From assembly GCA_039680175.1 (NCBI GenBank), contig JBDKTO010000117.1, positions 47,278-111,277 of the forward strand: DNA of 64,000 nucleotides, given 5' to 3'. The DNA is from Veillonellales bacterium. GTDB taxonomy: Bacteria; Bacillota; Negativicutes; JAAYSF01. Positions 2,900 to 21,889 of the stretch are shown here, piece after piece; the first letter of the stretch is position 1; every line of letters begins with the position of its first letter. Below the pieces are notes generated by a model. It searched no databases and was not told the origin of the DNA. It worked only from the letters and a program-made list of their open reading frames with translations. Made by a program: the position numbers and the translations under genes.

Positions 2900-2918
2900 A
2901 TATATTGGAGAAAACATA

Positions 2919-3761: not shown

Positions 3762-4628
3762 ATGAGAATTTTGATTACAGCTAAAAAAAGCTATGTTGGT
3801 TTGAGTTTGAAAACATGGTTAGGACAATGGCCTAACAAATATAGAGTCGATACGATGTCCTCACGAAATGACGAATGGCGTAATATAGACTTTTCTCAAT
3901 ATGATGTGCTTTTTCATGTAGCCGCTTTTGTGCATAAAAAAGAAGAAGCGAAAATGGAAGGGAATTATTATAAAGTCAACAGAGATTTAACGATTAGTCT
4001 TGCGAGAAAAGCCAAACAATCTGGGGTAAAACAATTTATTTTTATGAGTACTGTAGCCGTATATGGACTTGTTGGTAAAGTCAAGGAAAATATTGTGATA
4101 AATAAAGATACACCTTGTTTGCCAACTACTTTTTATGGAAAAAGCAAATTGCAAGCAGAAAAGGAGCTAGAAAAATTAAATGACAAATGTTTCCATGTGG
4201 CGATTATTAGATCTCCAATGATTTATGGACCAAATTGTCCAGGGAATTATAATCGTTTAAAAAAGTTTGTGATGCATGTTCCTGTATTTCCGCAAATAAA
4301 CAATCAAAGAAGTATGATTTTTATAGATAATTTATCAGAATTTATTAGGTTATTAGTGATTAATAATGAATATGGATTATTTTTTCCCCAAAATAAAGAG
4401 TATGTAAATACTTCTGAAATGGTGAGGTTAATAATGCAAGAAAAATCAAAAAGAATATATTTCTCTAGAATAATAGCTTTTGGAATGAACATTGAAAAGT
4501 ACATAAGTATATGGAATAAAGTCTTTGGTAATTTAGTTATTGATCATCAATTATCATCCTATAAAAATGTAGAATATTGCGTTGCTGATTTTGAGCAATC
4601 TATAAAGATTTGCGAAACTAAACTATAA
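3762..4628 (+). CDS. NAD-dependent epimerase/dehydratase family protein (short-chain, CapN-like)
   Basis: Rossmann-like N-terminus and a YGKSK catalytic YxxxK motif. 288 aa. Adjacent to the L-FucNAc genes. Confidence 0.5.
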   Translation: MRILITAKKSYVGLSLKTWLGQWPNKYRVDTMSSRNDEWRNIDFSQYDVLFHVAAFVHKKEEAKMEGNYYKVNRDLTISLARKAKQSGVKQFIFMSTVAVYGLVGKVKENIVINKDTPCLPTTFYGKSKLQAEKELEKLNDKCFHVAIIRSPMIYGPNCPGNYNRLKKFVMHVPVFPQINNQRSMIFIDNLSEFIRLLVINNEYGLFFPQNKEYVNTSEMVRLIMQEKSKRIYFSRIIAFGMNIEKYISIWNKVFGNLVIDHQLSSYKNVEYCVADFEQSIKICETKL

Positions 4629-4643
4629 AAATTAGGTGCTAAT

Positions 4644-5894
4644 GTGAAAAAAGATATATTGATAATGTGTCAATATTTTTATCCGGAATATGTTTCGTCT
4701 GCTACTTTACCTACGGAGTTGGCGGAGGATTTAGTTATGGATGGATTAACGGTAGATGTATTATGTGGTTATCCTAAAGAATACTATGATGGTAAAAATA
4801 TACCTAGAAATGAACGATATAACGGTATAAATATACATAGGGTTAAATATACTCGATTTAACAATAAAAATAAGATTGGCCGCATAACCAACTTCTGCTC
4901 TTTTTTTATTGCAATATTAATGAGATCTTTTAACTTATTTAAATATAAATGCATTTTAGTATATTCTAATCCTCCATTATTGCCGTTAATACCATATGTT
5001 GTTTCTCGTCTTTCTAAAGTGAAATTTGTTTTTGTAGCATTTGATTTATATCCAGATAATGCTCTGGTCATGCGGGCAATAAAAAAAGGCGGCATAATTG
5101 AAAAAATAATGCATTTTATCAATAAAAAAGTCTACAAATATGCTGATAGTGTAGTTGCCATTGGTACTGAGATGAAACAGTATATGATAAGTCATGGAAT
5201 TGCTATTAATCCAGAAATAATTAATATTATTCCAAACTGGTACAGCGAAGAGAAACTTTCAAGCCCAATTCTTATCAGCGATGAATTTAGAAGATTAAGG
5301 GAAAAATGGCCTTTTATCGTATTATACAGTGGAAATATGGGCGCTTGCCAGGATATGGAAACCATTTTAAAAACTGTGTCTCGGTTTAAGAATAATGAAA
5401 ATATTTTTTTTATATTTACTGGTCATGGAAACAAATTGGAATATGTTAAGAGATATATAAATATCAATGGCATAAATAATGCAAAGGTATATGGCTTCTT
5501 ATTAGGAACTGACTATAGTGATGTATTAAATATTGCAGATGTTTGTTTGGTGAGTCTTGAAAAGGGCATTGAGGGTCTAGGTGTTCCAAGCAAAACATAT
5601 GGATATTTCGCTGCCGGGAAGCCAGTATTAGCGATAATGTCATATGAAACTGATATAGTTAAGAATTTGAATGAATATAACGCAGGTGGAAGTGTTCTAC
5701 AAACGGATGTTGATGGTTTTGAAAATTTAATTTGGAGATTCATGGAAAATAAAGAACTAGTTAGAATATGTGGAGAAAACGCAAAGGCCGTATTCCATGC
5801 TTTATATGATAGACAAATATGTACAGATATGTATTATAAATTAATTACGAGAATAATTAATGAGACAGAGGAAGGTGACATAAGAGATGTTTAA
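4644..5894 (+). CDS. Glycosyltransferase family 4 (WbuB-like putative L-FucNAc transferase)
   Basis: 416 aa GT-B fold with a C-terminal EX7E-like region. GTG start. Located immediately upstream of fnlABC, as in L-FucNAc O-antigen and capsule loci. Confidence 0.55.
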   Translation: MKKDILIMCQYFYPEYVSSATLPTELAEDLVMDGLTVDVLCGYPKEYYDGKNIPRNERYNGINIHRVKYTRFNNKNKIGRITNFCSFFIAILMRSFNLFKYKCILVYSNPPLLPLIPYVVSRLSKVKFVFVAFDLYPDNALVMRAIKKGGIIEKIMHFINKKVYKYADSVVAIGTEMKQYMISHGIAINPEIINIIPNWYSEEKLSSPILISDEFRRLREKWPFIVLYSGNMGACQDMETILKTVSRFKNNENIFFIFTGHGNKLEYVKRYININGINNAKVYGFLLGTDYSDVLNIADVCLVSLEKGIEGLGVPSKTYGYFAAGKPVLAIMSYETDIVKNLNEYNAGGSVLQTDVDGFENLIWRFMENKELVRICGENAKAVFHALYDRQICTDMYYKLITRIINETEEGDIRDV

Positions 5895-8078: not shown

Positions 8079-9209
8079 TTGATGAATAAAATGAGGGTAA
8101 TGACTATAGTTGGGACACGACCTGAAATAATCAGGTTATCTGAGGTTATTCGAGCTTGTGATAGATACTTTGATCATATTTTAGTACACACGGGACAGAA
8201 CTGGGACTATAGTTTGAATGATGTATTTTTTAAAGAGCTTGAATTAAGAGAGCCAGATCATTATCTAAATGCCGTTGGAGAGCATTTGGGTGATACTATG
8301 GGCAATATTATTGGGAAGTCCTATGAAATACTATCAAAAGAAAAGCCGGATGCTTTACTTATTCTCGGGGATACAAATTCTGCGCTAAGTGCAATATCAG
8401 CTAAACGTCTAAAAATACCAATATTTCATATGGAAGCAGGCAATCGGTGTTTTGATCAAAACGTACCTGAAGAAATAAATAGAAAGATTGTGGATCATAT
8501 ATCGGATGTTAACTTACCATATACGGAACATAGCAGAAGATATTTACTATCCGAAGGTATAAGAAAAGAGCATATTTATGTTACAGGTTCACCTATGACT
8601 GAAGTATTACACAAGAATATGCATAAGATAGAGCAGAGTAAAATATTAAAAGAACTTGGCTTAGAAACAGGTGAATATATTTTAGTTTCTGCCCATAGAG
8701 AGGAAAATATTGATAATGAGAAAAATTTTTTCTCACTAATGAATGCTATTAATGAGATCGCTGAGAAATATCAAATGCCGGTAATTTATTCTACTCACCC
8801 AAGAAGCAAAAACACGATTGAAAAAAGAAGGTTTAAATTCCATCCTTTAGTTAGAAATCTAAAACCCTTTGGTTTTTTTGATTATAATCAACTTCAGGTT
8901 AATGCTTATTGTGTTCTTTCTGATAGCGGAACAGTTCCTGAAGAAGCGTCAATATTAGGGTTCCCTGCTGTATCCATTAGAACTTCCACAGAACGCCCGG
9001 AAGCATTGGATAAAGGGGCAATTATTCTTGGCGGAATAAAGAAAGAGGATGTATTACAGTCAGTTGAACTATGTAGAAGTATGTGGGAAAACAAGGAGCA
9101 AGTTCTCCCGGTCACAGACTATATAGATACTAATGTGTCAGTAAAGGTAATCAAAATAATTCAAAGCTATACAAAGATAGTGAATAGAGTAATATGGGCA
9201 AAAGAATAA
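8079..9209 (+). CDS. fnlC: UDP-N-acetylglucosamine 2-epimerase, non-hydrolysing (FnlC/CapG/WbjD)
   Basis: N-terminal MTIVGTRPEIIRL and the overall 376-aa length are typical of the WecB/CapG family. It completes the three-gene L-FucNAc pathway. Confidence 0.8.
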   Translation: MMNKMRVMTIVGTRPEIIRLSEVIRACDRYFDHILVHTGQNWDYSLNDVFFKELELREPDHYLNAVGEHLGDTMGNIIGKSYEILSKEKPDALLILGDTNSALSAISAKRLKIPIFHMEAGNRCFDQNVPEEINRKIVDHISDVNLPYTEHSRRYLLSEGIRKEHIYVTGSPMTEVLHKNMHKIEQSKILKELGLETGEYILVSAHREENIDNEKNFFSLMNAINEIAEKYQMPVIYSTHPRSKNTIEKRRFKFHPLVRNLKPFGFFDYNQLQVNAYCVLSDSGTVPEEASILGFPAVSIRTSTERPEALDKGAIILGGIKKEDVLQSVELCRSMWENKEQVLPVTDYIDTNVSVKVIKIIQSYTKIVNRVIWAKE

Positions 9210-9588: not shown

Positions 9589-9669
9589 TGTGGTATCAAG
9601 GTTCAGTTTCTTGCGGAAGCAGTGGGACGCTCATTTTGCTCCGTCTATGATAAGATATTTATCAGGCTG

Positions 9670-11022
9670 TTATCGAAAAGCAGCTGGATGAGTTGAAAAA
9701 GATCGCTGCGATTGTGTTGACTCGGTAAACATAGATAGCTTTTCCACTGCATACAGCGGTAGGCTTAGCAGCCAATCTTCCTTTTTATAATCGGCCATTG
9801 ATGTGCGTATCGACAGTTTGGGCCGGAATTTTTCATAATACGTTTTTAGACTCTTTGCCTTTAAATTTGTTTCAGCCTTGACTTCGATGGGAATGACGTT
9901 ACTGCCATTATCCGCTGCAAAGTCGATTTCCGCAGTACCGCGGTTATTTGTCCAGTAATATGTGTCCAGTCCTTTGATCGTTTTTAGCTGTTGCAATACG
10001 TATTGTTCGGTAAGCGCACCTTTGAATTCCTTAAAAAGTTCGTTACCATCCAAAAGGGTGCTTTGATTAAGGCGTACCATGCAAGAAAGCAGTCCTACAT
10101 CCAACAGAAACAGCTTAAAGGCTTTCACATCTTCATAAGCCTTTAGTGGAACAGCCGGTGCAGTCACACGATGTACTTTATGCACCAGGCCGCAGTCGGT
10201 CAGCCAGAGCAGTGCCAATTCGTATTCCTTGGCTCTGGCGCCATTTCTGATCAGTCCATAGATAAATTTTTTATTCTCTTTGGCGAGCTGAGCGGGGATA
10301 CTGTTCCAGAGCATTCTAATTCTGGGTACGGTTTCATTAGGCGCGTGTTTGGAAAAGTCCTGCTCGTAAGCTGCAAGAATGCGCTGTTGTATCTCGCGTG
10401 CTTCGTTAAAATCTTTATTTTCGGAAAAATGCAGTACCGCTTCCGGCATTCCACCAACATAGTAATAATATTTGAGAATGTCTATATATGTCTGTCTGAA
10501 GGCAGTTACCATGTCAAAGTCGCCATGCTGCAGCAGCTCTGCATACTGTTCATGTCCCATTGCCATCAAAAATTCAGTGAAACTGAGCGGGTATAAATCA
10601 AGGAATTCCACTTTACCGACAGGAAAAGATGTACCGCCATGCAGTGCCACACCCAACAGGGATCCGGCGCATATGATCTGATATTCCGGGGCATTCTCAT
10701 TAAAGTATTTCAGAGAAGTCAGCGCTTGCGGCACTTCTTGTATTTCATCAAAAATCAGCAGTGTATTGGCAGGGTCAATTTTTTGGCCGGAATAAAGTTC
10801 CAGTCCGGTTACAATGCGTCCGATATCCAAGTCGGATGAAAACAGATCCTTCATCCGCCGATTGTTGTCAAAGCTGATATAAACAGTTTTAGCAAAAGCA
10901 AGTTTTCCGAACTCTTTCATTAGCCAGGTTTTTCCAACTTGTCTTGCTCCACGGATAATCAGCGGTTTTTTATTTCGTTTTGCTTTCCACTTAGTAAGCT
11001 CTTCCATTGCTGTTCTATACAT
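9670..11022 (-). CDS. AAA+ ATPase (DUF4143-type ATP-binding protein)
   Basis: Walker A GARQVGKT near the N-terminus and Walker B LLIFDEIQ. 450 aa, with the C-terminal DUF4143-like region typical of this widespread family. Confidence 0.7.
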   Translation of the reverse strand: MYRTAMEELTKWKAKRNKKPLIIRGARQVGKTWLMKEFGKLAFAKTVYISFDNNRRMKDLFSSDLDIGRIVTGLELYSGQKIDPANTLLIFDEIQEVPQALTSLKYFNENAPEYQIICAGSLLGVALHGGTSFPVGKVEFLDLYPLSFTEFLMAMGHEQYAELLQHGDFDMVTAFRQTYIDILKYYYYVGGMPEAVLHFSENKDFNEAREIQQRILAAYEQDFSKHAPNETVPRIRMLWNSIPAQLAKENKKFIYGLIRNGARAKEYELALLWLTDCGLVHKVHRVTAPAVPLKAYEDVKAFKLFLLDVGLLSCMVRLNQSTLLDGNELFKEFKGALTEQYVLQQLKTIKGLDTYYWTNNRGTAEIDFAADNGSNVIPIEVKAETNLKAKSLKTYYEKFRPKLSIRTSMADYKKEDWLLSLPLYAVEKLSMFTESTQSQRSFSTHPAAFR

Positions 11023-11258
11023 GATGCATCACTCCATAAGAACAGTATAACATGGCAAAAACAAAAAATACAACGAAAATATGTATAATAAGAACATTTT
11101 TTCGAACTAAAAAAATAAAGCAGAGATGTAAGTCCATCAAATGCAGTGCCATTAAGATGCCACCTTGATAATGACAGCTCTAAAAGGCACACAAGGCAGC
11201 AACGAGAGATTGCTTCGCTGCGCTCGCAATGACAGGTTGAAGAATCAGGGACGTTTTT

Positions 11259-11483
11259 TTGCTTCTTTTTCCCACAGGCTGCCGGTTGTTTTGTCCTGAA
11301 TTTGTCCGTGAATTTTGGTATGCTGCGGCGCTGGGTAACAGTAGGGGGGATCATTGTTATAATAAGGCCGAAGGCAGCAGAGAAACGGCAAAGCGGCTGT
11401 TGGACATGGGAATGTCGGTTTCTGATATTACCAAAGCAACTGGTTTGTCTGAGACGGAAGTCCATCAAATGCAGTGCCATTAA
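11259..11483 (+). pseudogene. Orphan C-terminal module of the Rpn-family nuclease (the same ~45 aa as the end of the 13230..14066 protein)
   Basis: The translation ends ...GDHCYNKAEGSRETAKRLLDMGMSVSDITKATGLSETEVHQMQCH. The C-terminus of the Rpn-like protein reads GNRETAKRLLDMGMSVSDIAKATGLSETEVRQLQCH. A third copy lies at ~15650-15745. Confidence 0.5.
11265..11380 (+). repeat. Repeated promoter-like leader module, copy 1. Other copies lie at ~14862-14910 (partial), ~15555-15655 and ~15890-15995.
   Basis: Near-identical stretch caggctgccggttgttttg...gaattttggtatgctgcggcgctgggtaaca...cattgttataataagg containing a TATAAT box. It precedes orphan copies of the Rpn C-terminal module. Confidence 0.5.
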
Positions 11484-11619
11484 GACGCCACCTTGATAAT
11501 GACAGCTCTAAAAGGCACACAAGGCAGCAACGAGAGATTGCTTCGCTGCGCTCGCAATGACAGGTTGAAGAATCAGGGACGTTTTTTTGCTTCTTTTGAA
11601 AATAGGGGAGCCTATTCCT

Positions 11620-11730
11620 TTCGTTAGGCTGCCGGTTGTGTTGCTTGCTGGGTTTAGGGTATAATAAAAGTGGAATATCGTATTGTATACTCAGCATAAT
11701 GGAAGAGGCAGGTGGGTTTTGCGTGAAACC
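11620..11730 (+). repeat. Second repeated leader module (TATAAT-containing), copy 1. Copy 2 lies at ~14995-15105.
   Basis: aggctgccggttgtgttgcttgctgggtttagggtataataaaagtggaatatcgtattgtatactcagcataatggaagaggcaggtgggttttgcgtgaaacc is repeated with few mismatches upstream of both copies of the small MEEAGGF protein gene. Confidence 0.5.
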
Positions 11731-11950
11731 GACAGTAGAATTTGCCAAGGCTATGGGGAAAACCAGAGAAAAGGTAAATGCAGCCGCTCAAAATGGTATT
11801 ATATTAGAGAAATCCCCGAGAATTCGGTTTCGGAGTGAAAGTGAGAAAGCGGCACTGTGCCGATCTGTTATTTTTACTGTTGAACAAGCGAAGCGATCCG
11901 GGAGGCTGCATAAATCGGGAAAAGGTTATGTACTATCATGGAAGAACTAA
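11636..11950 (+). CDS. Small hypothetical protein (copy 1 of a duplicated gene). The true start is probably the internal MEEAGGF near 11699.
   Basis: Roughly 90% identical at protein level to ORF 15041..15322. The function is unknown. Confidence 0.45.
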   Translation: MCCLLGLGYNKSGISYCILSIMEEAGGFCVKPTVEFAKAMGKTREKVNAAAQNGIILEKSPRIRFRSESEKAALCRSVIFTVEQAKRSGRLHKSGKGYVLSWKN

Positions 11951-12530
11951 AAAAGCGGCTAAAAGGATGTATAAATATTCAAGATAGCTTACAACAAATG
12001 ACAGCCGCCGGTATAGTGAGCCAGGCTTTTAAAAAATATAATCTTATTCCGGCTGTCGTAGGAGGGCTGGCGGTGGAATTTTATACATTGTCTAATTACC
12101 TAACCAGGGATATAGATATGGTGATTCCCGGAGACCAATATGCAAATGAGGTAATGATCGAACTCGGCTTTAGTAAAAGGGGCAGTACTTGGATTTTTTC
12201 GGACGATCCTACCATAATGTTGACTTTCCCGGAAGTCCTTTAGGTGGTTCGTGGGATAAAGTTTTACCGGTTGAACTTGACTCCGGTGACATTGTCTATG
12301 TTATTTCGATTGAAGATATTATAGTGGATCGAATCTTAGCTGTGAAATATTGGGGCGATTCGGAAGAGTGGGCGCAATATATGATGGCGGCTCATTATGA
12401 CGACATAGATTGGGAGTATTGTTTTAAAAGGGCAGATAAAGAGCTTTGCTTGGATGGTTTAGAAAAAATGAAAAAATGGTCAGCAGAACACCGTGAGGCA
12501 TTCTATTGCGGGCAAGTAGAGAAAAAATGA
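11938..12530 (+). pseudogene. Nucleotidyltransferase-like gene disrupted by a frameshift near 12220-12245
   Basis: Two overlapping ORFs, 11938..12243 and 12189..12530, read continuously if a 1-nt frameshift is allowed (..LTFPEVL* versus ..DFPGSPLGGSWDKV). The first part carries a GG..DID minimal-nucleotidyltransferase motif (VVGGLAVEF...TRDIDMV). Confidence 0.5.
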
Positions 12531-12560
12531 GTAAAATATGTAATTGACAGGAGATAATAC

Positions 12561-13106
12561 ATGGATAATATCAGTCTAAGAGATTTAAAAAAACATTTAA
12601 CGACAGTGCCCTTTGATGAAATGGTCGCGGATATAATCACTTTATATAAGGACATTCCGGCAGTCAGAGAATATTATCTCATAAAGTTATGTCCTGCTGC
12701 CGAAATTACTCTATTGGAAAAATACAAAAAAATTATTGAAAATGAGTTTTTTCCTAATAGAGGTTTTGGCAAGGCGCGAGCTTCAGTTGTCAGAAAAGCA
12801 ATTAGTGACTTCAAAAAAATTGCCAAGTCGCCATACAATATAGTTGATTTATTATTTTTCCACGTTTCAATAGGAGTAGACTTTACCAATTCATATGGCG
12901 ATATTGACGATGTATTTTACGCAAGCTTAGGAAACAGTTTTGAACAGGCATTAAAATATGGCTTTAAACATGGTATAGCCGACGAAATTAGGAAAAGCGC
13001 AAAAATAGTACTAGAAAAATGCCAAGGATTCGGCTGGGGGTTTAGCGACGTTATTGATGATATTTATTATACATATTACGATTCTTATGAAGAAGATAAC
13101 GATTAA
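12561..13106 (+). CDS. Hypothetical protein (AT-rich, acidic C-terminus)
   Basis: 181 aa with no recognisable motif. It is followed directly by a copy of the GGGACGTACATTTTGCT hairpin. Confidence 0.5.
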   Translation: MDNISLRDLKKHLTTVPFDEMVADIITLYKDIPAVREYYLIKLCPAAEITLLEKYKKIIENEFFPNRGFGKARASVVRKAISDFKKIAKSPYNIVDLLFFHVSIGVDFTNSYGDIDDVFYASLGNSFEQALKYGFKHGIADEIRKSAKIVLEKCQGFGWGFSDVIDDIYYTYYDSYEEDND

Positions 13107-13113
13107 GGTTTAG

Positions 13114-13140
13114 AAAGCATAGGGACGTATATTTTGCTTC
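13114..13140 (+). terminator. Conserved hairpin aagcaTAGGGACGTAtATTTTGCTT (member of a 5-copy family)
   Basis: Stem aagca/tgctt with a conserved loop, placed immediately 3' of a + strand stop codon and followed by a U-rich run. Confidence 0.4.
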
Positions 13141-13229
13141 TCTTATGGGGACAATTATCTATCGTCAGAAGAGGAGACTGTATTTTTTTCAAATATCTGG
13201 TATACTAAAAATACAAGGGAGGAATACGA

Positions 13230-14066
13230 ATGGAATGGAATCTGAACCGAATCAACGACTATTTGTTTAAGTGGGTATTTGGCCGTGAGGAAAATAAAGA
13301 AATTTTGCTCAGCTTTCTGAACTCCGTATTGTCTCCCAGCGGGCAGGACGAATTAGCGGACATTATGCTGGCGGAACGGGAATTGGATCCGGAGCATATT
13401 GCCGATAAAATGTCGCGACTGGATATTTTAGGCAAGGGAAACGACGGCAGCATCATTAATATCGAAGTGCAAATTGCCAATCAGTATGACATAGATAAAC
13501 GGACACTGTATTACTGGGCAAAGCTGTACCAGGGACAGATGCAGAAAGGGCAGAGGTATAAAGAACTCTCCCGCACCATTACCGTTAATGTACTAAACTT
13601 TGCTTTTCTGCCGAAGGAAGAGAAGTATCATAGTATGTTTGCCCTGTATGAGACGGAGACAGGGTACCGATTAAACCGGGATTTGGAGATTCATTTTTTG
13701 GAACTGTCAAAATGGAAACAGCTGCAGGTGCCGCCGCGAACGCGGCTGGATAAGTGGCTGATGTATCTATCGAATGCCAATCCGGAGGAAATGGAGGAGA
13801 TAGCTATGAGCGAACCAGCGATTCGCAAGGCGTTAAGTGCAGAGGAAATCTTTTTAAAGCAGGATAAAGAAAGATATTTGTACGAGATGAGAGAGAAAGC
13901 CATATTGGATCATATTTCCGCCATTAGCGGTGCGGAAGAAAAAGGAAGAGCCGAAGGAAACAGGGAAACGGCAAAGCGGCTATTGGACATGGGAATGTCG
14001 GTTTCTGATATTGCCAAAGCAACGGGGTTGTCTGAGACGGAAGTCCGTCAGCTGCAGTGTCATTGA
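13230..14066 (+). CDS. Rpn-family recombination-promoting nuclease / putative transposase (PD-(D/E)XK; YhgA-like)
   Basis: 278 aa. The N-terminal region MEWNLNRINDYLFKWVFGREENKEILLSFLNSVL...LDILGKGNDGSIINIEVQ is characteristic of the Rpn/YhgA-like (TIGR01784-type) family. Good RBS (agggagg). Fragments of its C-terminus are scattered nearby. Confidence 0.7.
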   Translation: MEWNLNRINDYLFKWVFGREENKEILLSFLNSVLSPSGQDELADIMLAERELDPEHIADKMSRLDILGKGNDGSIINIEVQIANQYDIDKRTLYYWAKLYQGQMQKGQRYKELSRTITVNVLNFAFLPKEEKYHSMFALYETETGYRLNRDLEIHFLELSKWKQLQVPPRTRLDKWLMYLSNANPEEMEEIAMSEPAIRKALSAEEIFLKQDKERYLYEMREKAILDHISAISGAEEKGRAEGNRETAKRLLDMGMSVSDIAKATGLSETEVRQLQCH

Positions 14067-14244
14067 AACGTCGCTGTTGGAATCATCGGGGGCGGGCGCT
14101 TTTTTGCTTCGTTTGTGATCCAAAGAAACTATTTTTTCGTCAGGCTGCCGGTTTTGTGCTTAGCCGGTCAGGGTATAGCGGAAGCAGATGAAGAAGAAGG
14201 GGTATGGCAGGCATTACTGCGGATCGCCGGAGAGTGAGCAGGGG

Positions 14245-14345
14245 AACACACACCCCGCCCTAACGGGCACCCCCACTCTGTATAATTCGACTGGCGAAAC
14301 TCAAAAAGCAGAGTTTCGAGTCTCATCTATCTTTCTAGAGGGGAT
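14245..14345 (+). repeat. MITE-like composite dispersed repeat with ACACCCCGCC / GGCGGGGTGT-type termini, copy 1
   Basis: acaccccgccctaacgggcacccccactctgtataattcgactggcgaaactcaaaaagcagagtttcgagtctcatctatctttctagagggga recurs at ~38408-38562, ~47850-47948 and ~50213-50460. Partial copies lie at ~25878-25930, ~41455-41580 and ~47606-47660. Confidence 0.6.
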
Positions 14346-14790
14346 TATGTGGGAAGCAGTGGGACGTTCTTTTTGCTCCGCCTATGATAAGATATTTATC
14401 AGGCCGTAAGCGAAAAGCAGCTGGATGAGTTGAAAAAGCTCGCTGCGATTGTGCTGACTCGGTAAACATGTATAGCTTCTCCACTGCATACAGCGGCAGG
14501 TTCAGCAGCCAATCTTCCTTTTTATAATCGGCCATTGATGCGCGTATCGATAGTTTGGGCCGGAATTTTTCATAATACGTTTTTAGACTCTTTGCCTTCA
14601 AATTTGTTTCGGCTTTGACTTCGATGGGGATGATTTCACTGCCATTATCCGCTGCAAAGCTTAAAGGCTTTCATATCTTCATAAGCCTTTAGTGGAACAG
14701 CCGGTGCAGTCACACGATGTACTTTATGCACCAGGCTGCAGTCGGTAACATAGTAATAATATTTGAGAATGTCTAAACAAAAAATACAAC
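14335..14790 (-). pseudogene. Decayed partial duplicate of the DUF4143 AAA+ ATPase gene
   Basis: Nucleotide stretches 14341-14640, 14641-14740 and 14741-14830 are near-identical to parts of 9590-11100, with internal deletions. The 88-aa ORF matches the ATPase C-terminus (KAKSLKTYYEKFRPKLSIR...). Confidence 0.65.
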
Positions 14791-15040
14791 GGAAATATGT
14801 ATAATACGTACATTTTTTCGAACTAAAAAATTTAAAGCAGTAGGGACGATTTCAGGCTGCCGGGGGTTTTGCCTCGGAATACCCGTGAATTTTGGTATGC
14901 TGTGGCGCTGGGGAAATCAAGAAAGAAATAACGCCCCTTCAAGCAACGGGGACGCTGTTTTTGTTTCTTGATTGATAGAGTATTTATTCTTTCGGCAGGC
15001 TGCCGGTTGTTTTGCTTGCCGGGTTTAGGGTATAATAAAA

Positions 15041-15322
15041 ATGGAATATCCGTATTGTATGTTCAGCATAATGGAAGAGGCAGGTGGGTTTTGCATGAAA
15101 CCGGCAATAGAGTTTGCAAAGGCTATTGGGAAAACCAGAGAAAAGGTAAATGCAGCAGCTCAAAATGGTATTATATTAGAGAAATCCCCAAGGGTTCGGT
15201 TTCGGAACGAAAGTGAGAAAGCGGCACTGTGCCGATCTGTTGTTTTTACTGTTGAACAAGCGAAGCGATCCGGGAGGCTGCATAAATCGGGAAAAGGTTA
15301 TGTATTATCATGGAAGAATTAA
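15041..15322 (+). CDS. Small hypothetical protein (copy 2 of a duplicated gene). It is followed by a truncated nucleotidyltransferase start (MEELKKRLKGCI*).
   Basis: Near-identical to 11636..11950. The downstream partner gene is truncated after 12 codons at ~15310-15348. Confidence 0.4.
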   Translation: MEYPYCMFSIMEEAGGFCMKPAIEFAKAIGKTREKVNAAAQNGIILEKSPRVRFRNESEKAALCRSVVFTVEQAKRSGRLHKSGKGYVLSWKN

Positions 15323-16017
15323 AAAAGCGGCTAAAAGGATGTATATAAAAAGCATAGGGACGTACATTTTGCTTCTCCTATAGAAATAATTATCTATCGA
15401 GACGGAAGTTCGTCAGATGCAGTGCCATTAAGACGCCACCTTGATAATGATAGCTCTAAAAGGCACACAAGGCAGCAACGAGAGATTGCTTCGCTGGCGC
15501 TCGCAATGACAGGCTGAAGAATCAGGGACATTCTTTACTCCTTTTATGTATGGTTCCCAGGCTGCCGGTTGTTTTGTTCTGAAATTGCCGGTGAATTCTG
15601 GTATGCTGCGGTGCCGGGTGACAATAGGTGGATCATTGTTATAATAAAGCCGAAGGCAGCAGGGAAACGGCAAAGCGGCTGCTGGACATGGGGATGTCGG
15701 TGTCTGATGTTGCCAAAGCAACGGGGTTGTCTTAGACGGAAGTTCGTCGATGCAGTGCCATTAAGACTCTGCTTGATAATGACAGCTTCTAAAAGGCACA
15801 AGGCAGCAACGAGAGATTGCTTCGCTGGCGCTCGCAATGACAGGCTGAAGAATCAGGGATGTTCCTTTTGTTTCCTCCATGTATGGTTTCCGCTTTTTTA
15901 CAGGCTGCCGGTTTTTTTGTCTGAATTTGTTCGTGAATTTTGGTATGCTGCGGTGTCGGGTGACAATAGGGTGGATCATTGTTATAATAAGGATAAAGAG
16001 GAAAAGAGGCGAAGCCT

Positions 16018-16452
16018 ATGGGTGCCAATCTGGCTGGAAAGAAGCGTAACGACAGGCTGCTGCAAGTATTAACCCCTTTTTTGTTGTCCAGAACGGAGAT
16101 TCAGTTTGCCTGGTTATTTGGATCGTATGCCACGGGGCGGAATACGGCATCCAGTGATATCGATATTGCTATTTTTGTTAACGATCTGAGACTATTGGGT
16201 GATACGGATTGGTATCTTGGCTTGAAATCAGATTTAATGGCTTTGACACATAAAGAAATCGATTTGATACTTTTGAACAATGCGAAGCCGTTGATGAAAC
16301 ATGCGGCTAATATGAAAAAAATAGTTTTACTGGCTCGTGATCCGTTGTTTGAGGCGGAATATGCGTTATCGGTCATTAAAGAATATAATGATGTGCGGTA
16401 TTGGGCGCAGCTTTCCCGGCAGCGCTTACTAGGAGGAGCGAAGCATGGTTAA
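16018..16452 (+). CDS. mntA: Minimal nucleotidyltransferase (MNT) antitoxin of a HepT/MNT type VII toxin-antitoxin pair
   Basis: GS-x10-DID motif (FGSYATGRNTASSDIDIAIF). 144 aa. Overlaps the downstream HEPN gene by 8 nt. Confidence 0.7.
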   Translation: MGANLAGKKRNDRLLQVLTPFLLSRTEIQFAWLFGSYATGRNTASSDIDIAIFVNDLRLLGDTDWYLGLKSDLMALTHKEIDLILLNNAKPLMKHAANMKKIVLLARDPLFEAEYALSVIKEYNDVRYWAQLSRQRLLGGAKHG

Positions 16453-16858
16453 GCATGATATTGTAGAACGGAAGTTGTGCCAAATTCAAAAATCTTTGGA
16501 AAAGATTTTGCTTTACCGTTCTTTGTCTTATGAGGAGTTTGTTAATCACGCAGTTGCCAGAGATGTGGTCGAATACAATCTTTTTATTATTATTAATTCC
16601 ATGATTGATATTGTAAATCATATTGTGACTGATGATGAATTGGGAGAAGTAGACATGCTGGCAGATGGATTTCGTATTTTAGAGACTTATGGATATTGGG
16701 ACAAAGAGCAAGCAAGCATATATACTAAAATGGTTGCTTTTCGTAATATGATTGCTCATCAGTATGCTGATATTGGCGCTCATGTAGTGTATGATGTTTT
16801 GCAGCATAAACTTGAAGGTGTTGAAAATTTCAACCGGCAGATTAGTGATAAATTGTAG
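16445..16858 (+). CDS. hepT: HepT-like HEPN toxin (DUF86)
   Basis: R-x4-H-x-Y motif present (FRNMIAHQY). 137 aa. Translationally coupled to the MNT gene. Confidence 0.7.
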   Translation: MVKHDIVERKLCQIQKSLEKILLYRSLSYEEFVNHAVARDVVEYNLFIIINSMIDIVNHIVTDDELGEVDMLADGFRILETYGYWDKEQASIYTKMVAFRNMIAHQYADIGAHVVYDVLQHKLEGVENFNRQISDKL

Positions 16859-16940
16859 ACGCGGTGAGGAGGGAAGCAGTGGGGACGTTATTCTCGCTTC
16901 GCTTGCGATGGGGAGTGTTGCTGCTCACAGGTAAAATCGA

Positions 16941-16968
16941 AGCGTGAGGGACGTACATTTTGCTCCTT
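16941..16968 (+). terminator. Conserved hairpin aagcgTGAGGGACGTACATTTTGCT (family member). A degenerate second copy lies at ~16875-16905.
   Basis: Same conserved loop GGGACGTACATTTT. Lies 3' of hepT. Confidence 0.35.
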
Positions 16969-17008
16969 CTATTTGTAAGGAAACCTCATTTCTTACAGGA
17001 GGCGTGTC

Positions 17009-17212
17009 ATGACCGAATATGATGTAACGATAAGCAGTGAAGAACAATTCGTTTTACAAGCGTTGGATAGTATTGTTAACAAAGTAGACCAAGAGTATAA
17101 TAAAAAAGAACATGTGTCCCTTTCCGACTTAAACGGCAGGCTGAAAATGGATGAGGTCATGGTCCTTAATTCGGCTTCAAACCAGCCAAAGAAGTTGTCA
17201 AAAGCGATTTAA
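17009..17212 (+). CDS. Small hypothetical protein
   Basis: 67 aa. Good RBS (aggagg) 8 nt upstream. Confidence 0.35.
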   Translation: MTEYDVTISSEEQFVLQALDSIVNKVDQEYNKKEHVSLSDLNGRLKMDEVMVLNSASNQPKKLSKAI

Positions 17213-17239
17213 GCAGAAGCAGAGGGAGAAGAGGGAGTT

Positions 17240-18115
17240 ATGGCGATAAAAAAGGGAATTATTTTGGCCGGGGGGTCGGGTACCCGGCTGTATCCGGTTA
17301 CGAAGTCGATTAGTAAGCAGTTGATGCCTGTATTTGACAAACCGATGGTATATTACCCGCTGTCGACGCTAATGCTGGCTGGGATTCAGGATATTCTGGT
17401 CATTACGACGCCTCAGGATCAGGCAAGTTTTCAACAGTTATTGGGGTCAGGCGATCAGTGGGGGATTAATTTGTCGTATGCGGTCCAGCCTAGCCCGGAT
17501 GGTTTGGCTCAGGCATTTATTATTGGGGAGTCCTTTATTGATGGGGCCGGATGCGCTTTGGTTTTGGGGGATAATATTTTTTATGGGTACGGATTTAGCG
17601 AAAAGCTGCAAAAGGCGAGGCAGCAGGAGCAGGGGGCTACGGTTTTTGCTTATTGGGTGAAGGACCCGGAACGGTATGGGGTGGTAGAGTTTGATGCAGC
17701 CGGAAAAGCTGTGAGCCTGGCAGAAAAACCGGTTAAGCCGAAGTCCAATTATGCGGTTACAGGGTTGTATTTTTATGACAGCCAAGTGGTGGAATTGGCG
17801 AAAATGGTGAAACCGTCTACCCGGGGGGAACTGGAAATCACTGATTTAAACCGGCTGTATTTGGAGCGGGATACACTTCGGGTAGAGACGCTGGGCCGGG
17901 GTTATGCCTGGCTGGATACGGGAACACATGAGTCTCTGCTGCAGGCTTCCGATTATATCGCGACGATTCAGGAGCGGCAGGGCCTGATGGTGGCCTGCCC
18001 GGAGGAAATTGCTTACCGAATGGGGTATATTTCCCGGAAGCAGCTGGCAGCTCAGGGTGATGTGATGAAGAAGAACGGCTATGGCAGGTATTTGCTGCGG
18101 ATTGCCGGGGAGTGA
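17240..18115 (+). CDS. rfbA: Glucose-1-phosphate thymidylyltransferase
   Basis: N-terminus [17 protein letters not shown] is the classic RmlA motif. 291 aa. Confidence 0.9.
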
Positions 18116-18153
18116 GCGGGGGACGGACAAAGGGGAATTTTAGCTGATAAGGT

Positions 18154-18726
18154 ATGGAGTTGATGGATATGAATATAGTAGAAACAAAATTGCCGGGGGT
18201 ATTGATTGTTGAAACCAGGGCTTTTGGTGATGAACGGGGTTTTTTTAAGGAAACTTGGCGGCAGGAGCGGTACGAGGCGCTGGGCATAAAGGGGCCGTTT
18301 GTCCAGGATAATTTATCGTATTCCACTCGCGGGGTGCTTCGGGGGCTGCATTATCAGAATCCGCATTCTCAGGGGAAATTGGTATCAGTGGTGCTGGGGG
18401 CAGTATTTGATGCGGCGGTGGATATTCGGGTGGGTTCGCCGACCTTTGGCCAGTGGACCGGGGTGGAGCTTTCCGGTGACAATCATCGTCAATTCTGGAT
18501 TCCGTCCGGATTTGCCCATGGTTTTTGTGTGTTGAGCGATACTGTATATTTTACTTATAAATGCACGGATGTTTATACGCCTTCGGCGGAAGGCGGGATC
18601 ATCTGGAATGATCCGGATATCGGGATTCAGTGGCCGGTCGAGGCCGGGGTGCTTTCGGATAAGGATCAGGTGTATCCGAGATTAAAGGATATAGCAGCGG
18701 ATAAGCTGCCCGTATATAGGGGATAA
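18154..18726 (+). CDS. rfbC: dTDP-4-dehydrorhamnose 3,5-epimerase
   Basis: RmlC cupin motifs (RGLHYQ, FWIPSGFAHGF). ~185 aa. The start is possibly at the internal Met near 18163-18169. Confidence 0.85.
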   Translation: MELMDMNIVETKLPGVLIVETRAFGDERGFFKETWRQERYEALGIKGPFVQDNLSYSTRGVLRGLHYQNPHSQGKLVSVVLGAVFDAAVDIRVGSPTFGQWTGVELSGDNHRQFWIPSGFAHGFCVLSDTVYFTYKCTDVYTPSAEGGIIWNDPDIGIQWPVEAGVLSDKDQVYPRLKDIAADKLPVYRG

Positions 18727-18909
18727 TGGGGGGCGGCTTTTGAACCGCCCTACCATCTATAGTGAAGCAATCTTAGGAACAATACAGAGTATCATGAAAA
18801 AGAATGCGGGAGGCTCTACAGATCGCCGCGTCGCTATCGCTCCTCGCGATGACAAAATTGTTGAAAAATCATTAGTTCGTTAGTTATAGCGGCGGAAGGA
18901 TGATAGGAT

Positions 18910-19734
18910 ATGAAAATTTTGGTAACCGGTGCTAATGGCCAGCTGGGCCGGGAAGTGGCACGGCAGGGAAAGGAATATGAGCTGATACTGACGGATGCGG
19001 ATACACTCGACATTACCGATGGAGCGGCAGTGAAAAGGTGTATGCGGGACAGTAAGCCGGACGCGGTGATTCATTGTGCGGCCTATACCAATGTGGACAA
19101 GGCGGAGACGGATGAAGACGGCGCTTTCCGGGTGAATGTTGTCGGTGCTCGGAATCTGGCGGCCGGTTGTTTGGCTACCGGAGCGCGGATGGTGTATGTG
19201 AGTACCGACTATGTGTTTGACGGGGCGGGAAATCGGGCCTACCGTGAATTCGATGCGGTTAATCCACAGACGGTATATGGCCGGACGAAATGGCAGGGAG
19301 AAGAGATGGTGCGGCATTTGCTGGGGCAGCATTATATTGTCAGGACCGCTTGGCTGTATGGTGAGGGAAATAATTTTGTCGCCACGATGCTGAGACTGGC
19401 AAATGAGCAGGATGCGCTGCGTGTTGTGGCGGATCAGATTGGGTCGCCCACATCTACCGTGGATTTGGCGAGGGTGATTTTTAAATTGCTGTCGACAGAC
19501 GGTTATGGGACATATCATGCCACTTGTCAGGGGCATTGTTCCTGGTATGATTTTGCCTGTGAAATCTTCCGGCAGGCAGGGAAAAAGGTCAAAGTCGAAC
19601 CGGTAACGACAGCGGAATTTCCCCGTCCGGCCAAGCGACCGGCTTATTCCGTACTGGACAATTACATGCTCCGAATGACGGTGGGTGATCCGGTCAGGGG
19701 ATGGCAGGAGGCGCTCCGGGCTTATTTGAAGTGA
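18910..19734 (+). CDS. rfbD: dTDP-4-dehydrorhamnose reductase
   Basis: MKILVTGANGQLG Rossmann N-terminus with the RmlD-like length (274 aa) and YxxxK region. Confidence 0.85.
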   Translation: MKILVTGANGQLGREVARQGKEYELILTDADTLDITDGAAVKRCMRDSKPDAVIHCAAYTNVDKAETDEDGAFRVNVVGARNLAAGCLATGARMVYVSTDYVFDGAGNRAYREFDAVNPQTVYGRTKWQGEEMVRHLLGQHYIVRTAWLYGEGNNFVATMLRLANEQDALRVVADQIGSPTSTVDLARVIFKLLSTDGYGTYHATCQGHCSWYDFACEIFRQAGKKVKVEPVTTAEFPRPAKRPAYSVLDNYMLRMTVGDPVRGWQEALRAYLK

Positions 19735-19767
19735 AGCTGGCAGGAGACGACGGAGGTTAAAAGTATA

Positions 19768-20850
19768 ATGCAGAGGGAGAGAAAAAATCGTATGCAAACT
19801 ATTCTTGTTACCGGCGGAGCCGGGTTTATCGGCAGCAATTTTATTCATATTGCCTTACAGGAGCCGGCTATTCGTATTCTGAATCTGGACAAGCTTACAT
19901 ATGCGGGAAATTTGGATTCACTCACAGCTGTGGAACATGATCCCCGCTATACTTTTATTCAGGGGGATATTTGTGATCAAACATTAGTAGAGAATCTTTT
20001 TGCCAAATATCAGCCGGATGCTATCGTTCATTTTGCTGCCGAGTCTCATGTGGATCGATCGATTGACGGGCCGGCAGCTTTTATTCGGACGAATATTAAC
20101 GGGACGTTTTCGCTGCTGGAAGCAGCCAAAAGCTATTGGCGGGATTTGACGGCGAAGAAAAAAGACAAGTTTCGCTTTTTGCATGTTTCTACCGATGAAG
20201 TGTACGGCTCCTTAGGAGAGACCGGCTTTTTTACGGAAGAAACGCCTTATGCGCCGAATTCTCCCTATTCCGCTTCTAAGGCTTCATCGGATCATCTGGT
20301 GCGGGCTTACTATCATACCTATGGGCTGCCGGTATTGCTGACCAATTGTTCCAATAATTACGGCCCTTACCAGTTCCCGGAGAAGCTGATTCCCTTGATG
20401 ATTCTCAACGCGCTGGAGGGAAAGCCGCTGCCTGTTTACGGCAATGGGCAGAATGTGCGGGACTGGCTGTATGTGGAGGATCATTGCCGGGCTATTCTTA
20501 GGGTTTTGGCAGCGGGGAAAGCGGGAGAGAAGTATAATATCGGCGGACATAATGAAAAAAAGAATCTGGATATTGTCCATGGGTTGTGTGATATATTGGA
20601 TGAGAAGCAGCCTCGCAGTGACGGAAAGTCTTACCGGGAGCAGATTGCTTATGTGAAGGATCGTCCCGGGCATGATCTGCGGTATGCGATCGATGCGTCG
20701 AAGATCCGGCGTGAGTTGGGCTGGGTGCCGGCGGAGACATTTGCGACCGGGATTGTGAAGACGGTGGAGTGGTATTTGGCTAATCGGGAATGGTGTCGGC
20801 GGGTGACGGACGGGAGCTACCGGCGGGAACGGCTGGGGGTTGATGCGTAG
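19768..20850 (+). CDS. rfbB: dTDP-glucose 4,6-dehydratase
   Basis: [14 protein letters not shown] and a [15 protein letters not shown] catalytic region. 360 aa (perhaps starting at the internal MQTIL). Confidence 0.9.
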
Positions 20851-20852
20851 TT

Positions 20853-21605
20853 ATGCTTTATTTTTTAAAATTTGCCGCCAGCTTTTTGTTGCCGCCGGGT
20901 ATTTTTATTTTAATGCTGCTGCTGGTCGTTTTCTTGCTTAAAAAACGCCGGGGGTATGTACATAAAGGGCTGTGCTTGATTATTGTTCTTTTTTATATTT
21001 TTTCCACCGGCTATGTGGGAGATTGTTTGCTCCAGACACTGGAGGCAAGGCATGTGCCGCCGGCAGAGGTTTCCGGTGACGTGATCATCATGCTGGGCGG
21101 CGGGGCTACTTTGGATACGCCGGATATAGACGGGCCGGGGCATTTGTCCGGCAGTGCGGCCAATCGGCTGCTGACGGCCGCCAGGCTGCAGCGCAGGCTG
21201 GGGGTGCCGGTTATTGTATCCGGTGGTCAGGTGTTTGAGGATTCCGGCCGGGAAGCGGTTATTGCCCGGCGGATTTTACTGGGACTGGGGATACCGGAAG
21301 AACAGATCCTGGTGGAGGATACCAGCCTGAACACTACCCAGAATGCGGTGAATGTAAAGAAAATTCTGGGCGAAAGGGGATTCCGGCAGCCGATTCTGGT
21401 GACGTCGGCGTTTCATATGGAACGGTCGATATTGAATTTTGCCAAACAAGGGGTAAGGGCAGAGGCTTATCCGGCGGATTATCTGGTCAGTACAACCCCC
21501 GGGCTGTATGCGAATAATTTTGTTCCGTCGGCGGACGGACTGCGGAGTTCGGCGATTTTTTTCCGGGAATGGCTGGGAATCTGGGCGCTGCGGGTGAGAC
21601 AATAG
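20853..21605 (+). CDS. YdcF/SanA-like DUF218 family membrane-associated protein
   Basis: N-terminal TM segment plus a DUF218-like core (PVIVSGG...ILVTSAFHMERS). 250 aa. Confidence 0.6.
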   Translation: MLYFLKFAASFLLPPGIFILMLLLVVFLLKKRRGYVHKGLCLIIVLFYIFSTGYVGDCLLQTLEARHVPPAEVSGDVIIMLGGGATLDTPDIDGPGHLSGSAANRLLTAARLQRRLGVPVIVSGGQVFEDSGREAVIARRILLGLGIPEEQILVEDTSLNTTQNAVNVKKILGERGFRQPILVTSAFHMERSILNFAKQGVRAEAYPADYLVSTTPGLYANNFVPSADGLRSSAIFFREWLGIWALRVRQ

Positions 21606-21610
21606 GCGCA

Positions 21611-21644
21611 AAAAGCAGGGGGGACGTACATTTTGCTTTTTAGT
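21611..21644 (+). terminator. Conserved hairpin aaagcaGGGGGGACGTACATTTTGCTTTTT (family member), 3' of the rml-DUF218 operon
   Basis: Stem aaagca/tgcttt with the conserved loop and a T-run. Plausible intrinsic terminator. Confidence 0.5.
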
Positions 21645-21889
21645 CGCTTAATGTGCCCGGCGTCAGGTTAAATGAAGGGATAATTTACGGTTAGGCACAG
21701 CGGGAGAAGCTGTTCTTTTTATTTTGACTGAACAGGAAATATTTATTAAATAGAGAATTTCTATAAGTATAATCTGCTAAAATTTTCTTGCGTTGTCATT
21801 GTAAGGCTGAGAAAGTAATTTTAGGCGTACAGGTTTTTCTTTCTTGCTAATGACAGCAGCCACTTCAATGAAAAGGAGCTGCGAATTGA

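Follow-up and report, generated by a model that had tools for sequence, protein, structure and literature searches.

Three described systems come closest to the element considered here, namely the repetitive extragenic palindromic (REP) sequences of Proteobacteria with their REP-associated tyrosine transposases (RAYTs), the terminal inverted repeat-associated tyrosine transposases (TIRYTs) with the repeats around their genes, and the insertion sequences (IS) of the IS200/IS605 family. The element is a hairpin of about 29 nt that recurs in a stretch of 64,000 nt (hereafter the window) from a metagenome-assembled genome (MAG) of a Veillonellales bacterium (Negativicutes; GenBank assembly GCA_039680175.1, contig JBDKTO010000117.1, positions 47,278 to 111,277 of the forward strand). 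The hairpins are very probably REP-type small dispersed DNA repeats of Bacillota, relatives of which flank a RAYT-like transposase gene of the HUH-Y1 type.

TIRYT genes are flanked by inverted repeats sharing the word GGGGWSAS, some of them self-complementary and moderately repeated, and dimers and clusters elsewhere in the genome were reported for some families of these terminal inverted repeats (PMC3733652). Firmicutes are unmentioned in the main text of that study, and the REP/RAYT papers that were searched for the words Firmicutes and Negativicutes contain neither. The signature of subclass 2.1 of the TnpA-Y1 transposases (Quentin et al. 2018, PMC6006769) consists of the motifs carried by the transposase linked to the present hairpins. 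This subclass was equated with Bertels' Group 1 RAYTs (PMC6006769; Group 1: Bertels et al. 2017, PMC5581495). The 2018 survey entered 'REP: no' for it (PMC6006769), and Group 1 RAYTs have been treated as single-copy, domesticated or co-opted genes without REPINs, the REP doublets forming hairpins (bioRxiv 10.1101/2021.07.10.451892).

As in the TIRYT system, whose unit is the TIRtron, the transposase gene is here flanked by inverted repeats at conserved distances, the repeats hold a GGGG-A-C word similar to GGGGWSAS, and dimers and clusters occur elsewhere in the genome. The repeats carry GGGGACGT or GGGACGGT, which agree with six of the eight positions of GGGGWSAS in a comparison made by the published consensus word alone. 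Unlike in TIRtrons, each repeat is here a covarying hairpin whose loop and uppermost stem hold the conserved word, and the hosts are Bacilli, Clostridia and Negativicutes. The repeat is best classed with the TIRYT-associated repeats, as a member from Bacillota that has a covarying hairpin and a REPIN-like population.

With the REP/REPIN-RAYT systems of Proteobacteria (REP sequences and bacterial interspersed mosaic elements with TnpA-REP in E. coli, REPINs in Pseudomonas), the family shares short extragenic imperfect palindromes, their arrangement as inverted doublets of 60-120 nt, singlets and clusters, the lack of target-site duplication, a low-copy HUH-Y1 gene between inverted copies (the REPtron) and the frequent position of copies just past stop codons. 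However, the GT[AG]G foot is absent here and the transposase is of another subclass. Moreover, the proteobacterial REPs are lineage-specific, whereas the core of the present repeat is almost invariant over three bacterial classes. The IS200/IS605 elements (IS608, ISDra2) share the enzyme superfamily (Pfam Y1_Tnp) and the lack of both target-site duplications and terminal inverted repeats in the sense of DDE transposases, and their strand-specific recognition of hairpins would by analogy extend to those studied here. Such elements nevertheless place the gene between two unlike hairpins in direct orientation and move as a whole, whereas the flanking copies are here inverted and there are far more short repeats than copies of the gene.

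The link with a transposase emerged when the open reading frames (ORFs) within 2.5 kb of hairpin copies were clustered across loci, as one recurrent family stood out. Two of its members exceed the cutoff of 80 bits of the NCBIfam model NF047646 for REP-associated tyrosine transposases (REP_Tyr_transpos), the gene at 2786-3664(-) of locus L076 with 85.8 bits and that at 1-582(-) of locus L065 with 87.7 bits, and both match Pfam Y1_Tnp. In L076, one hairpin lies about 250 nt 5' of the transposase gene and a doublet starts at its stop codon. At E<=1e-20, the L076 protein has over 1,600 homologues. The 120 best ones listed are 58-84% identical, the organisms named among these 120 are all Bacillota, and many of the proteins bear the label RayT at the source. 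Seven further homologue loci, with the gene at 4001-4780(+) in each, were searched with the hairpin model with its filters off, which located the following copies around the gene:

L094, Bacillota MAG: upstream copy at 3780 (+), downstream copy at 4852 (-)
L095/L096, Geosporobacter: upstream copy at 3926 (+), downstream copy at 4773 (-)
L097, Mesobacillus: upstream copy at 3783 (+), downstream copy at 4966 (-), three more copies nearby
L098/L099, Anaerovirgula: upstream copy at 3912 (+), downstream copy at 4781 (-)
L100, Desulfotomaculum: upstream copy at 3920 (+), downstream copy at 4783 (-)
L101, Dehalobacterium: upstream copy at 3921 (+), downstream copy at 4782 (-)
L102, Ornithinibacillus: no flanking copies, a single copy 1.7 kb off

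Including L076, the gene stands between two hairpins pointing towards it, as in a REPtron or TIRtron, in seven of the eight transposase loci and in at least six genera; in Clostridia the upstream copy is about 50 nt away from the gene and the downstream one lies at its stop codon. The same clustering of ORFs revealed no DDE transposase recurring near copies. Rpn, a PD-(D/E)XK nuclease encoded in the window, was also considered as the partner enzyme and was rejected because no homologue was found near copies outside the window.

In a blastp comparison with the alignment of Di Nocera et al. 2013 (PMC3733652 supplement), the linked transposase is 37-45% identical to the TIRYTs gbm2474, pca3049, sml4509 and dau2153 (E 1e-30 to 1e-36) and 31-34% identical to the remaining TIRYTs, whereas identity to the classical RAYTs eco b228 and pfs3939 amounts to 23-28% (E 1e-7 to 1e-12). 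The motifs NHVH, FQ and YIHQNP are read in its sequence, and its C-terminal tail (residues ~230-258) gives sub-threshold HTH_23/HTH_28-like matches, which are precomputed in homologues. The TIRYT/subclass 2.1 type is characterised by NH.H, FQ or W[EQ], Y[IV]H.NP, a length of ~240-260 aa and a C-terminal helix-turn-helix, and by its sequence the enzyme is of this type. The tag 'dau' in the alignment, a locus-tag prefix, probably stands for Desulforudis audaxviator.

In the window, the pattern GGGACG-N2-8-TTTTGCTY has eight matches, exclusively on the + strand and within 9624-21638, as against none in 100 dinucleotide-preserving shuffles. The word GGGACGTACATTTT occurs exactly at 15357, 16948 and 21621, and with one mismatch at 13122. 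A covariance model of the hairpin family (R1), run filter-free, located seven strong copies (9614, 13112, 14351, 15347, 16871, 16938 and 21610) and three weak ones (11237, 11565 and 15846), all of them intergenic and on the + strand, and gave no comparable match in the remaining 52 kb. The local density is thus 10 copies in 12 kb, nine of the ten being inside an accessory island and the tenth 5 nt behind a DUF218 gene. All belong to a 'CATTTT' subtype and lie on the G-rich strand. Because R1 contained window sequences, a second model (R2) was built from 37 transposase-flanking or perfect-palindrome copies, without any sequence from the window or of the CATTTT type. Its four best matches in the 64 kb are the copies at 15347 (29.8 bits), 13112 (27.6), 21610 (24.5) and 14351 (20.0), followed by those at 11240 and 11568. 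The window copies are shown in this way, by their likeness to a model made without them, to be members of the transposase-flanking hairpin family. The copies and their surroundings are as follows:

9614 to 9644, + strand: putative REP-type hairpin copy CGGAAGCAGTGGGACGCTCATTTTGCTCCGT, 26 nt past the stop of the AAA_14/DUF4143 ATPase gene, which lies on the minus strand and to which the copy is antisense (R1 35.0 bits, E 4.5e-10)
11237 to 11267, + strand: degenerate copy GAAGAATCAGGGACGTTTTTTTGCTTC behind an orphan Rpn C-terminal fragment (R1 14.8 bits; R2 15.5 bits, E 0.02)
11565 to 11595, + strand: degenerate copy, duplicate of 11237-11267, repeat family D3 (R1 14.8 bits; R2 15.5 bits)
13112 to 13142, + strand: copy AGAAAGCATAGGGACGTATATTTTGCTTCTC, with the DUF6155 stop 6 nt upstream and the Rpn gene 88 nt downstream (R1 41.9 bits; R2 27.6 bits, E 1.8e-6)
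14078 to 14112, + strand: highly degenerate relic GGGGCGGGCGCTTTTTTGCTTC, 12 nt past the Rpn stop, not significant alone, with position and TTTTGCTTC tail agreeing with the other copies (R1 8.5 bits, E 3)
14351 to 14381, + strand: copy within a decayed duplicate, counterpart of 9614-9644, repeat family D1 (R1 36.3 bits; R2 20.0 bits, E 6e-4)
15347 to 15377, + strand: top-scoring copy AAAAAGCATAGGGACGTACATTTTGCTTCTC, counterpart of 13112-13142, repeat families D2/D6, preceded by a truncated pseudogene and with a rearrangement junction at its 5' foot (R1 44.5 bits; R2 29.8 bits, E 3.3e-7)
15846 to 15876, + strand: degenerate copy GAAGAATCAGGGATGTTCCTTTTGTTTC between an orphan Rpn tail and MNT/HepT (R1 12.4 bits, E 0.1; R2 13.6 bits)
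16871 to 16902, + strand: copy GGGAAGCAGTGGGGACGTTATTCTCGCTTCGC, 13 nt past the HepT toxin stop (R1 22.2 bits, E 2.6e-5)
16938 to 16968, + strand: copy TCGAAGCGTGAGGGACGTACATTTTGCTCCTT, 66 nt 3' of copy 16871-16902 (R1 26.2 bits; R2 11.6 bits)
21610 to 21641, + strand: copy AAAAAGCAGGGGGGACGTACATTTTGCTTTTT, 5 nt past the DUF218 stop at the end of rmlACDB-DUF218 (R1 33.1 bits; R2 24.5 bits, E 1.9e-5)

A further tie between the window subtype and the transposase is found at 4503-4714 of locus L027, in which an exact window-subtype 29-mer lies 30 nt 5' of an ORF of 49 aa that encodes a truncated transposase N-terminus with about 55% identity to the transposase family. The gene is there reduced to 42 residues, and the point of truncation is a second, degenerate hairpin copy. 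Used as a query for an intact transposase of the window subtype, the 42-aa remnant matched only itself, and a second RAYT query had no named Negativicutes among its best 120 matches.

A preliminary description of the window, drawn from its letters alone, had named five copies, at 13114-13140, 15350-15376, 16941-16968 (with a neighbour at 16875-16905) and 21611-21644, all of which are present. Looser relatives placed near 9600, 11240, 14360 and 15850 were recovered by the covariance model, which adds the copy at 11565, whereas that near 15520 has degenerated too far to be scored. The position given for the copies, immediately 3' of stop codons, is correct for 13112, 16871, 21610 and the relic at 14078 but not for 15347, which follows a pseudogene, nor for 9614, which is antisense to the sole nearby stop. 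That they are not simple intrinsic terminators (a G+C-rich hairpin followed by a T/U run) is borne out, since a terminator scan left the strong copies uncalled and the T-run lies within the 3' arm, with none after the stem. The comparison with Rfam suggested there returned no match in the whole 64 kb at the gathering threshold, and an E-value search of 9-22 kb gave two chance-level matches only, away from the copies. The last copy, described as ending the rmlACDB-DUF218 operon, does lie 5 nt past the DUF218 stop; a terminator-like hairpin with a T-run (ACAGCGGGAGAAGCTGT TCTTTTTATT), found by the terminator scan at 21697-21722, 55 nt past that copy, is more likely to be the end of the transcript. 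A conserved target word was searched for upstream of the copies and none was found.

Related genomes and metagenomes supply about 100 variants, over which the unit reads [A/G]GAAGCA-NN-GGG / ACGTA / CCY-N'N'-TGCTTC[C/T]. Many variants are perfectly palindromic, such as GAAGCATAGGG-ACGTA-CCCTATGCTTC, and the fold is therefore a stem of 11-12 bp with the 5-nt loop ACGTA. The conserved loop of 13-16 nt in the preliminary description is consequently mostly stem, its GGG pairing with CCC, or with TTT in the window subtype. In this subtype, the 3' partner of GGG is altered from CCC to (A)TT (upper 3' arm ATTTT), and the upper stem pairs by G.T/G.U wobble only, plus one G-A mismatch. The proposed fold has 83.8% of cells paired (91% in the alignment A2 subset), as against ~51-57% after a shift of the 3' partners by 1-3 columns, and its covariation score exceeds all 500 shuffles; the covariation claimed earlier for the stem is thus real, at other positions than those proposed. 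Pair counts are AU 33, UA 15, GU 9, UG 4, CG 2 and GC 1 in mid-stem, and GC 22, AU 20 and GU 15 at the foot, a position outside the pattern used for sequence collection. An alternative fold from single-sequence folding (H2, GGGGA-c-GUA / UGC-UUCCU) is well paired, yet it was set aside as its covariation is no greater than that of shuffles. The invariant portion comprises GAAGCA..GGGACG on the 5' side and GCTTC at the 3' foot, and the foot reads [A/G]GAAGC in 101 of 101 variants. In Clostridial copies, the loop ACGGT replaces ACGTA with GGGACG retained, and a 'type B' variant, GAAGCAAGGGGACGTAAAATCCGCTTCGC, keeps the 5' half with a different 3' arm.

When genomes were scanned for exact matches, one for each species, the motif turned up in MAGs of Sporomusaceae and Negativicutes, in Sporomusa acidovorans and S. 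malonica, and also in 'Firmicutes bacterium UBA5766', several Eubacteriales and Bacillota MAGs and a Phycisphaerales-binned contig. The consensus in these genomes is GGAAGCAAGGGGACGTACATTTTGCTTCC, in places in tandem with periods of 30, 34 and 69 nt. Scanning metagenomes with the two variable stretches unspecified yielded 48 contigs, and the pooled sequences amount to 101 distinct variants. More than 100 copies are present in 66 related loci (fetched as 8-13 kb each), with up to five per 8.8 kb in L097. Two contigs of other labels, L010 (Bacteroidetes) and L027 (Acidobacteriota), bear the Bacillota-type repeat too. Among viral contigs, six single matches were obtained, about the chance level for a 16-base pattern by our own estimate, and a full-text literature search for the motif string returned unrelated primer matches only.

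In the related loci, pairs of copies less than 400 nt apart are convergent in 28 cases, divergent in 2 and direct in 11. The convergent pairs form doublets of 60-120 nt (59-118 nt apart for most) with subfamily-specific spacers, and the ends of 29 doublets carry no direct repeats indicative of target-site duplication. Copies are co-oriented with the upstream ORF in ~24 cases and anti-oriented in 14, by a crude ORF call, and 51 singlets against 21 lie on the locally G-rich strand. Because of the convergent doublets, the singlets in either orientation and the bias to the G-rich strand, the hairpin is read as a DNA repeat of REP/REPIN type rather than as a transcript-bound element.

Several observations weigh against a REP-type repeat served by a RAYT-like enzyme. 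The GT[AG]G tetranucleotide is missing from the 5' foot, with neither GTAG nor GTGG among the 101 variants. Folding of the window copies as DNA is weak (-1.9 to -4.4 kcal/mol), for most of them no better than that of shuffles and equal on both strands, the + strand being favoured by RNA parameters only. They are direct-orientation singlets, without doublets. Singlets tend to share the direction of the upstream gene and to lie on the G-rich strand, which a constraint from the replication strand would explain as well as one at the level of the transcript, as the tests against genes and against GC skew give a bias of about 2:1 that does not separate replication from transcription. Finally, the 64-kb window holds no RAYT gene, the searches brought up none from its MAG or from any named Sporomusaceae genome, and the window is tied to the transposase through family membership and L027.

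Part of this evidence would suit an element acting in RNA, as the preliminary description supposed in proposing a 3' untranslated region (UTR) element, e.g., a site for an RNase or an antiterminator, or a small regulatory RNA. Such an element could be a stabiliser of 3' ends, an RNase site, a terminator without U-tract or the site of an RNA-binding protein, e.g., CsrA through the GGA of GGGGACG. Several window copies indeed begin 5-13 nt past stop codons, ~63-70% of singlets are co-oriented with the upstream ORF, and the + strand folds better as RNA than the - strand (-8.3 vs -4.1; -15.9 vs -9.4; consensus -13.9, z -5.1), G.U pairs being possible there only. We nonetheless consider this explanation unlikely. 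The stem is followed by no T-run and the strong copies escape the terminator scan, Rfam holds no match, and some copies are anti-oriented or lie in divergent promoter regions (L032, L012, L042). The 'type B' partner has no G.U-compatible arm, yet retains GAAGCAAGGGGACGTA. Symmetric inverted doublets dominate elsewhere (28 convergent vs 2 divergent), both orientations occur, and inverted copies flank the transposase gene on both sides in seven of eight loci. What stands of the earlier proposal is that a specific factor recognises the element, since its sequence is conserved; its placement in a 3' UTR RNA is unsupported.

Sites of site-specific recombination, either attC-like cassette boundaries or Xer/dif-like sites (11-7-11), that shuffle the accessory genes of the island would account for copies bounding small modules (MNT/HepT and DUF6155 in the window, Fic/Doc-MazE in L071/L060), for the rearrangement junction exactly at the foot of copy 15347 and for a unit that lends itself to being drawn as two imperfect inverted arms with a centre of 5-7 nt between them. 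This is very improbable, given that no attC core (RYYYAAC / GTTRRRY) is visible in the copies inspected, that copies also lie between housekeeping genes (apt-mtnP in L015), that tandem arrays and tight doublets occur, and that the recurrently linked enzyme is an HUH-Y1 transposase and no integrase. No tyrosine recombinase or integrase was seen among the island ORFs scanned, the whole window not having been scanned for IntI. There is even less to recommend miniature inverted-repeat transposable elements (MITEs), solo terminal inverted repeats of a DDE-type IS or the ends of a mobile Rpn gene. Doublets do resemble MITEs of 60-120 nt with inverted ends of ~27 nt and internal sequence common to subfamilies, and the Rpn gene of the window has copies on both sides (13112, 14078); but doublet ends show no target-site duplications, no DDE transposase recurs near copies, Rpn homologues are out of reach of copies outside the window, and the window pair is direct, not inverted. 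A sigma-54 promoter (GG-N10-GC), with the motif read as GGGACG....TTGCT, bears a superficial likeness to TGGCACG-N4-TTGCW and has next to no chance of being correct. The GG-GC spacing, which is 12 nt and not 10 in the main copies and varies among the others, refutes it, and copies are found behind genes, not before them.

For the REP-type repeat, mobilisation by the transposase is inferred from analogy with E. coli TnpA-REP and IS200/IS605. The transposase would recognise the folded top strand when it is single-stranded at the replication fork and read the invariant GAAGCA..GGGACG half, and HUH-Y1 cleavage and rejoining would spread copies free of target-site duplications. With their degenerate upper stems and weak DNA hairpins, the copies of the window may be relics or poor substrates. 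If transcribed, they would fold through G.U pairs close behind stop codons, and since the + strand folds better as RNA, upstream mRNAs may be affected at their 3' ends; such protection would be a by-product and not the cause of sequence conservation. More speculative, and perhaps somewhat short of even odds, is the wider proposal that subclass 2.1/Group 1 (TIRYT-type) transposases maintain a REPIN-like population over Bacilli, Clostridia and Negativicutes with a near-invariant GAAGCA-NN-GGGACG half-site.

A possible trace of the enzyme is the '5' stutter', a partial 5' arm located at most 30 nt upstream in 27 of 126 distinct copies, as against downstream in 7 and on the other strand in 2+2. 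Stutter units terminate at GGGG, GGGGACG or GGGACGTACCC. Those of 10 nt are explicable by slippage, whereas those of 14-18 nt ending in GGGGACG are not, and the latter may mark the points of cutting and rejoining. The stutter may be the footprint of an enzyme whose cut falls within the loop (ACG^TA) and whose point of rejoining is the 5' foot. Examples are seen in L015 (7489-7505), L036 (~2950-2986), L029 (~1115-1150), L061, L079 and L101.

In annotation, the proper treatment of the hairpins is masking as dispersed repeats, and the labels of terminator or regulatory RNA should be avoided. If the proposed link is true, the family would supply the subclass 2.1/Group 1 enzymes, the most widespread and least understood class of RAYT, with a concrete DNA substrate, a 29-nt hairpin with a half-site invariant over three Bacillota classes; with such a substrate defined, oligonucleotides allow direct tests of binding and cleavage by the enzyme. 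The repeats are, in addition, markers of DNA prone to rearrangement; those of the window enclose toxin-antitoxin and nuclease genes that are inserted in a polysaccharide locus.

Genes of the window are almost all on the + strand, whose GC skew is strongly positive (+0.165). Proteins encoded here match MEN6414780, MEN6414783 and MEN6414774, of a contig of 118,665 nt, exactly. The accessory island of 8 kb lies between a UDP-GlcNAc 2-epimerase gene (8079-9209) and rmlA (17240) and contains the AAA_14/DUF4143 ATPase (- strand), DUF6155 and Rpn-family PD-(D/E)XK nuclease genes, the MNT/HepT toxin-antitoxin pair and many gene fragments; rmlA, rmlC, rmlD, rmlB and DUF218 come after it. Region 14352-15545 is a decayed duplicate of 9615-14110 with several internal deletions, which keeps segments 9615-9914, 10112-10200, 11059-11119, 11618-11973 and 13111-13164 in order at 87-98% identity and holds pseudogene fragments of the ATPase and of small ORFs. 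Owing to this duplication, several window copies are non-independent, 14351 being a copy of 9614 and 15347 of 13112. The deletion junction at 15345/15346 falls exactly at the 5' foot of hairpin 15347 (ggatgtata followed by taaaaagcata), and in the related contig L014, at ~2808, other upstream sequence is joined to the same foot (aaaatgtata followed by taaaagcgta). The hairpin repeats may be rearrangement hot spots. Contig L014 (JBDKUM010000216.1), binned as Phycisphaerales, is near-identical to the window, with 95% amino-acid identity in the ATPase and identical hairpin flanks, and is probably mis-binned.

The word AGGCTGCCGG has seven exact + strand sites in the window (11276-15911), 25-40 nt 3' of several hairpin copies. 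As it is confined to the island and the near-identical L014, it was rejected as part of the element and assigned to the local duplications. A second small palindrome (..GAGATTGCTTCGCTGCGCTCGCAATGAC..) occurs four times in the Rpn-tail repeats (11191-11218, 11519-11546, 15467-15494 and 15798-15825), with a weak score of 8.9 bits on the hairpin model. A promoter-like module (..GTGACA-17-TATAAT, with an upstream TG) is present three times (11289-11483, 15572-15759 and 15914-15992), once 5' of MNT/HepT and twice 5' of orphan 40-aa Rpn C-terminal fragments. These fragments are 79-88% identical to the tail of the intact gene and could be dead remnants or stand-alone mini-genes. In two metagenome contigs (L071, 2634-3563; L060, 314-1245), a pair formed by a Fic/Doc toxin and a MazE/AbrB antitoxin lies between inverted hairpin copies. 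The MNT/HepT pair of the window (15846-16902) sits between two direct copies.

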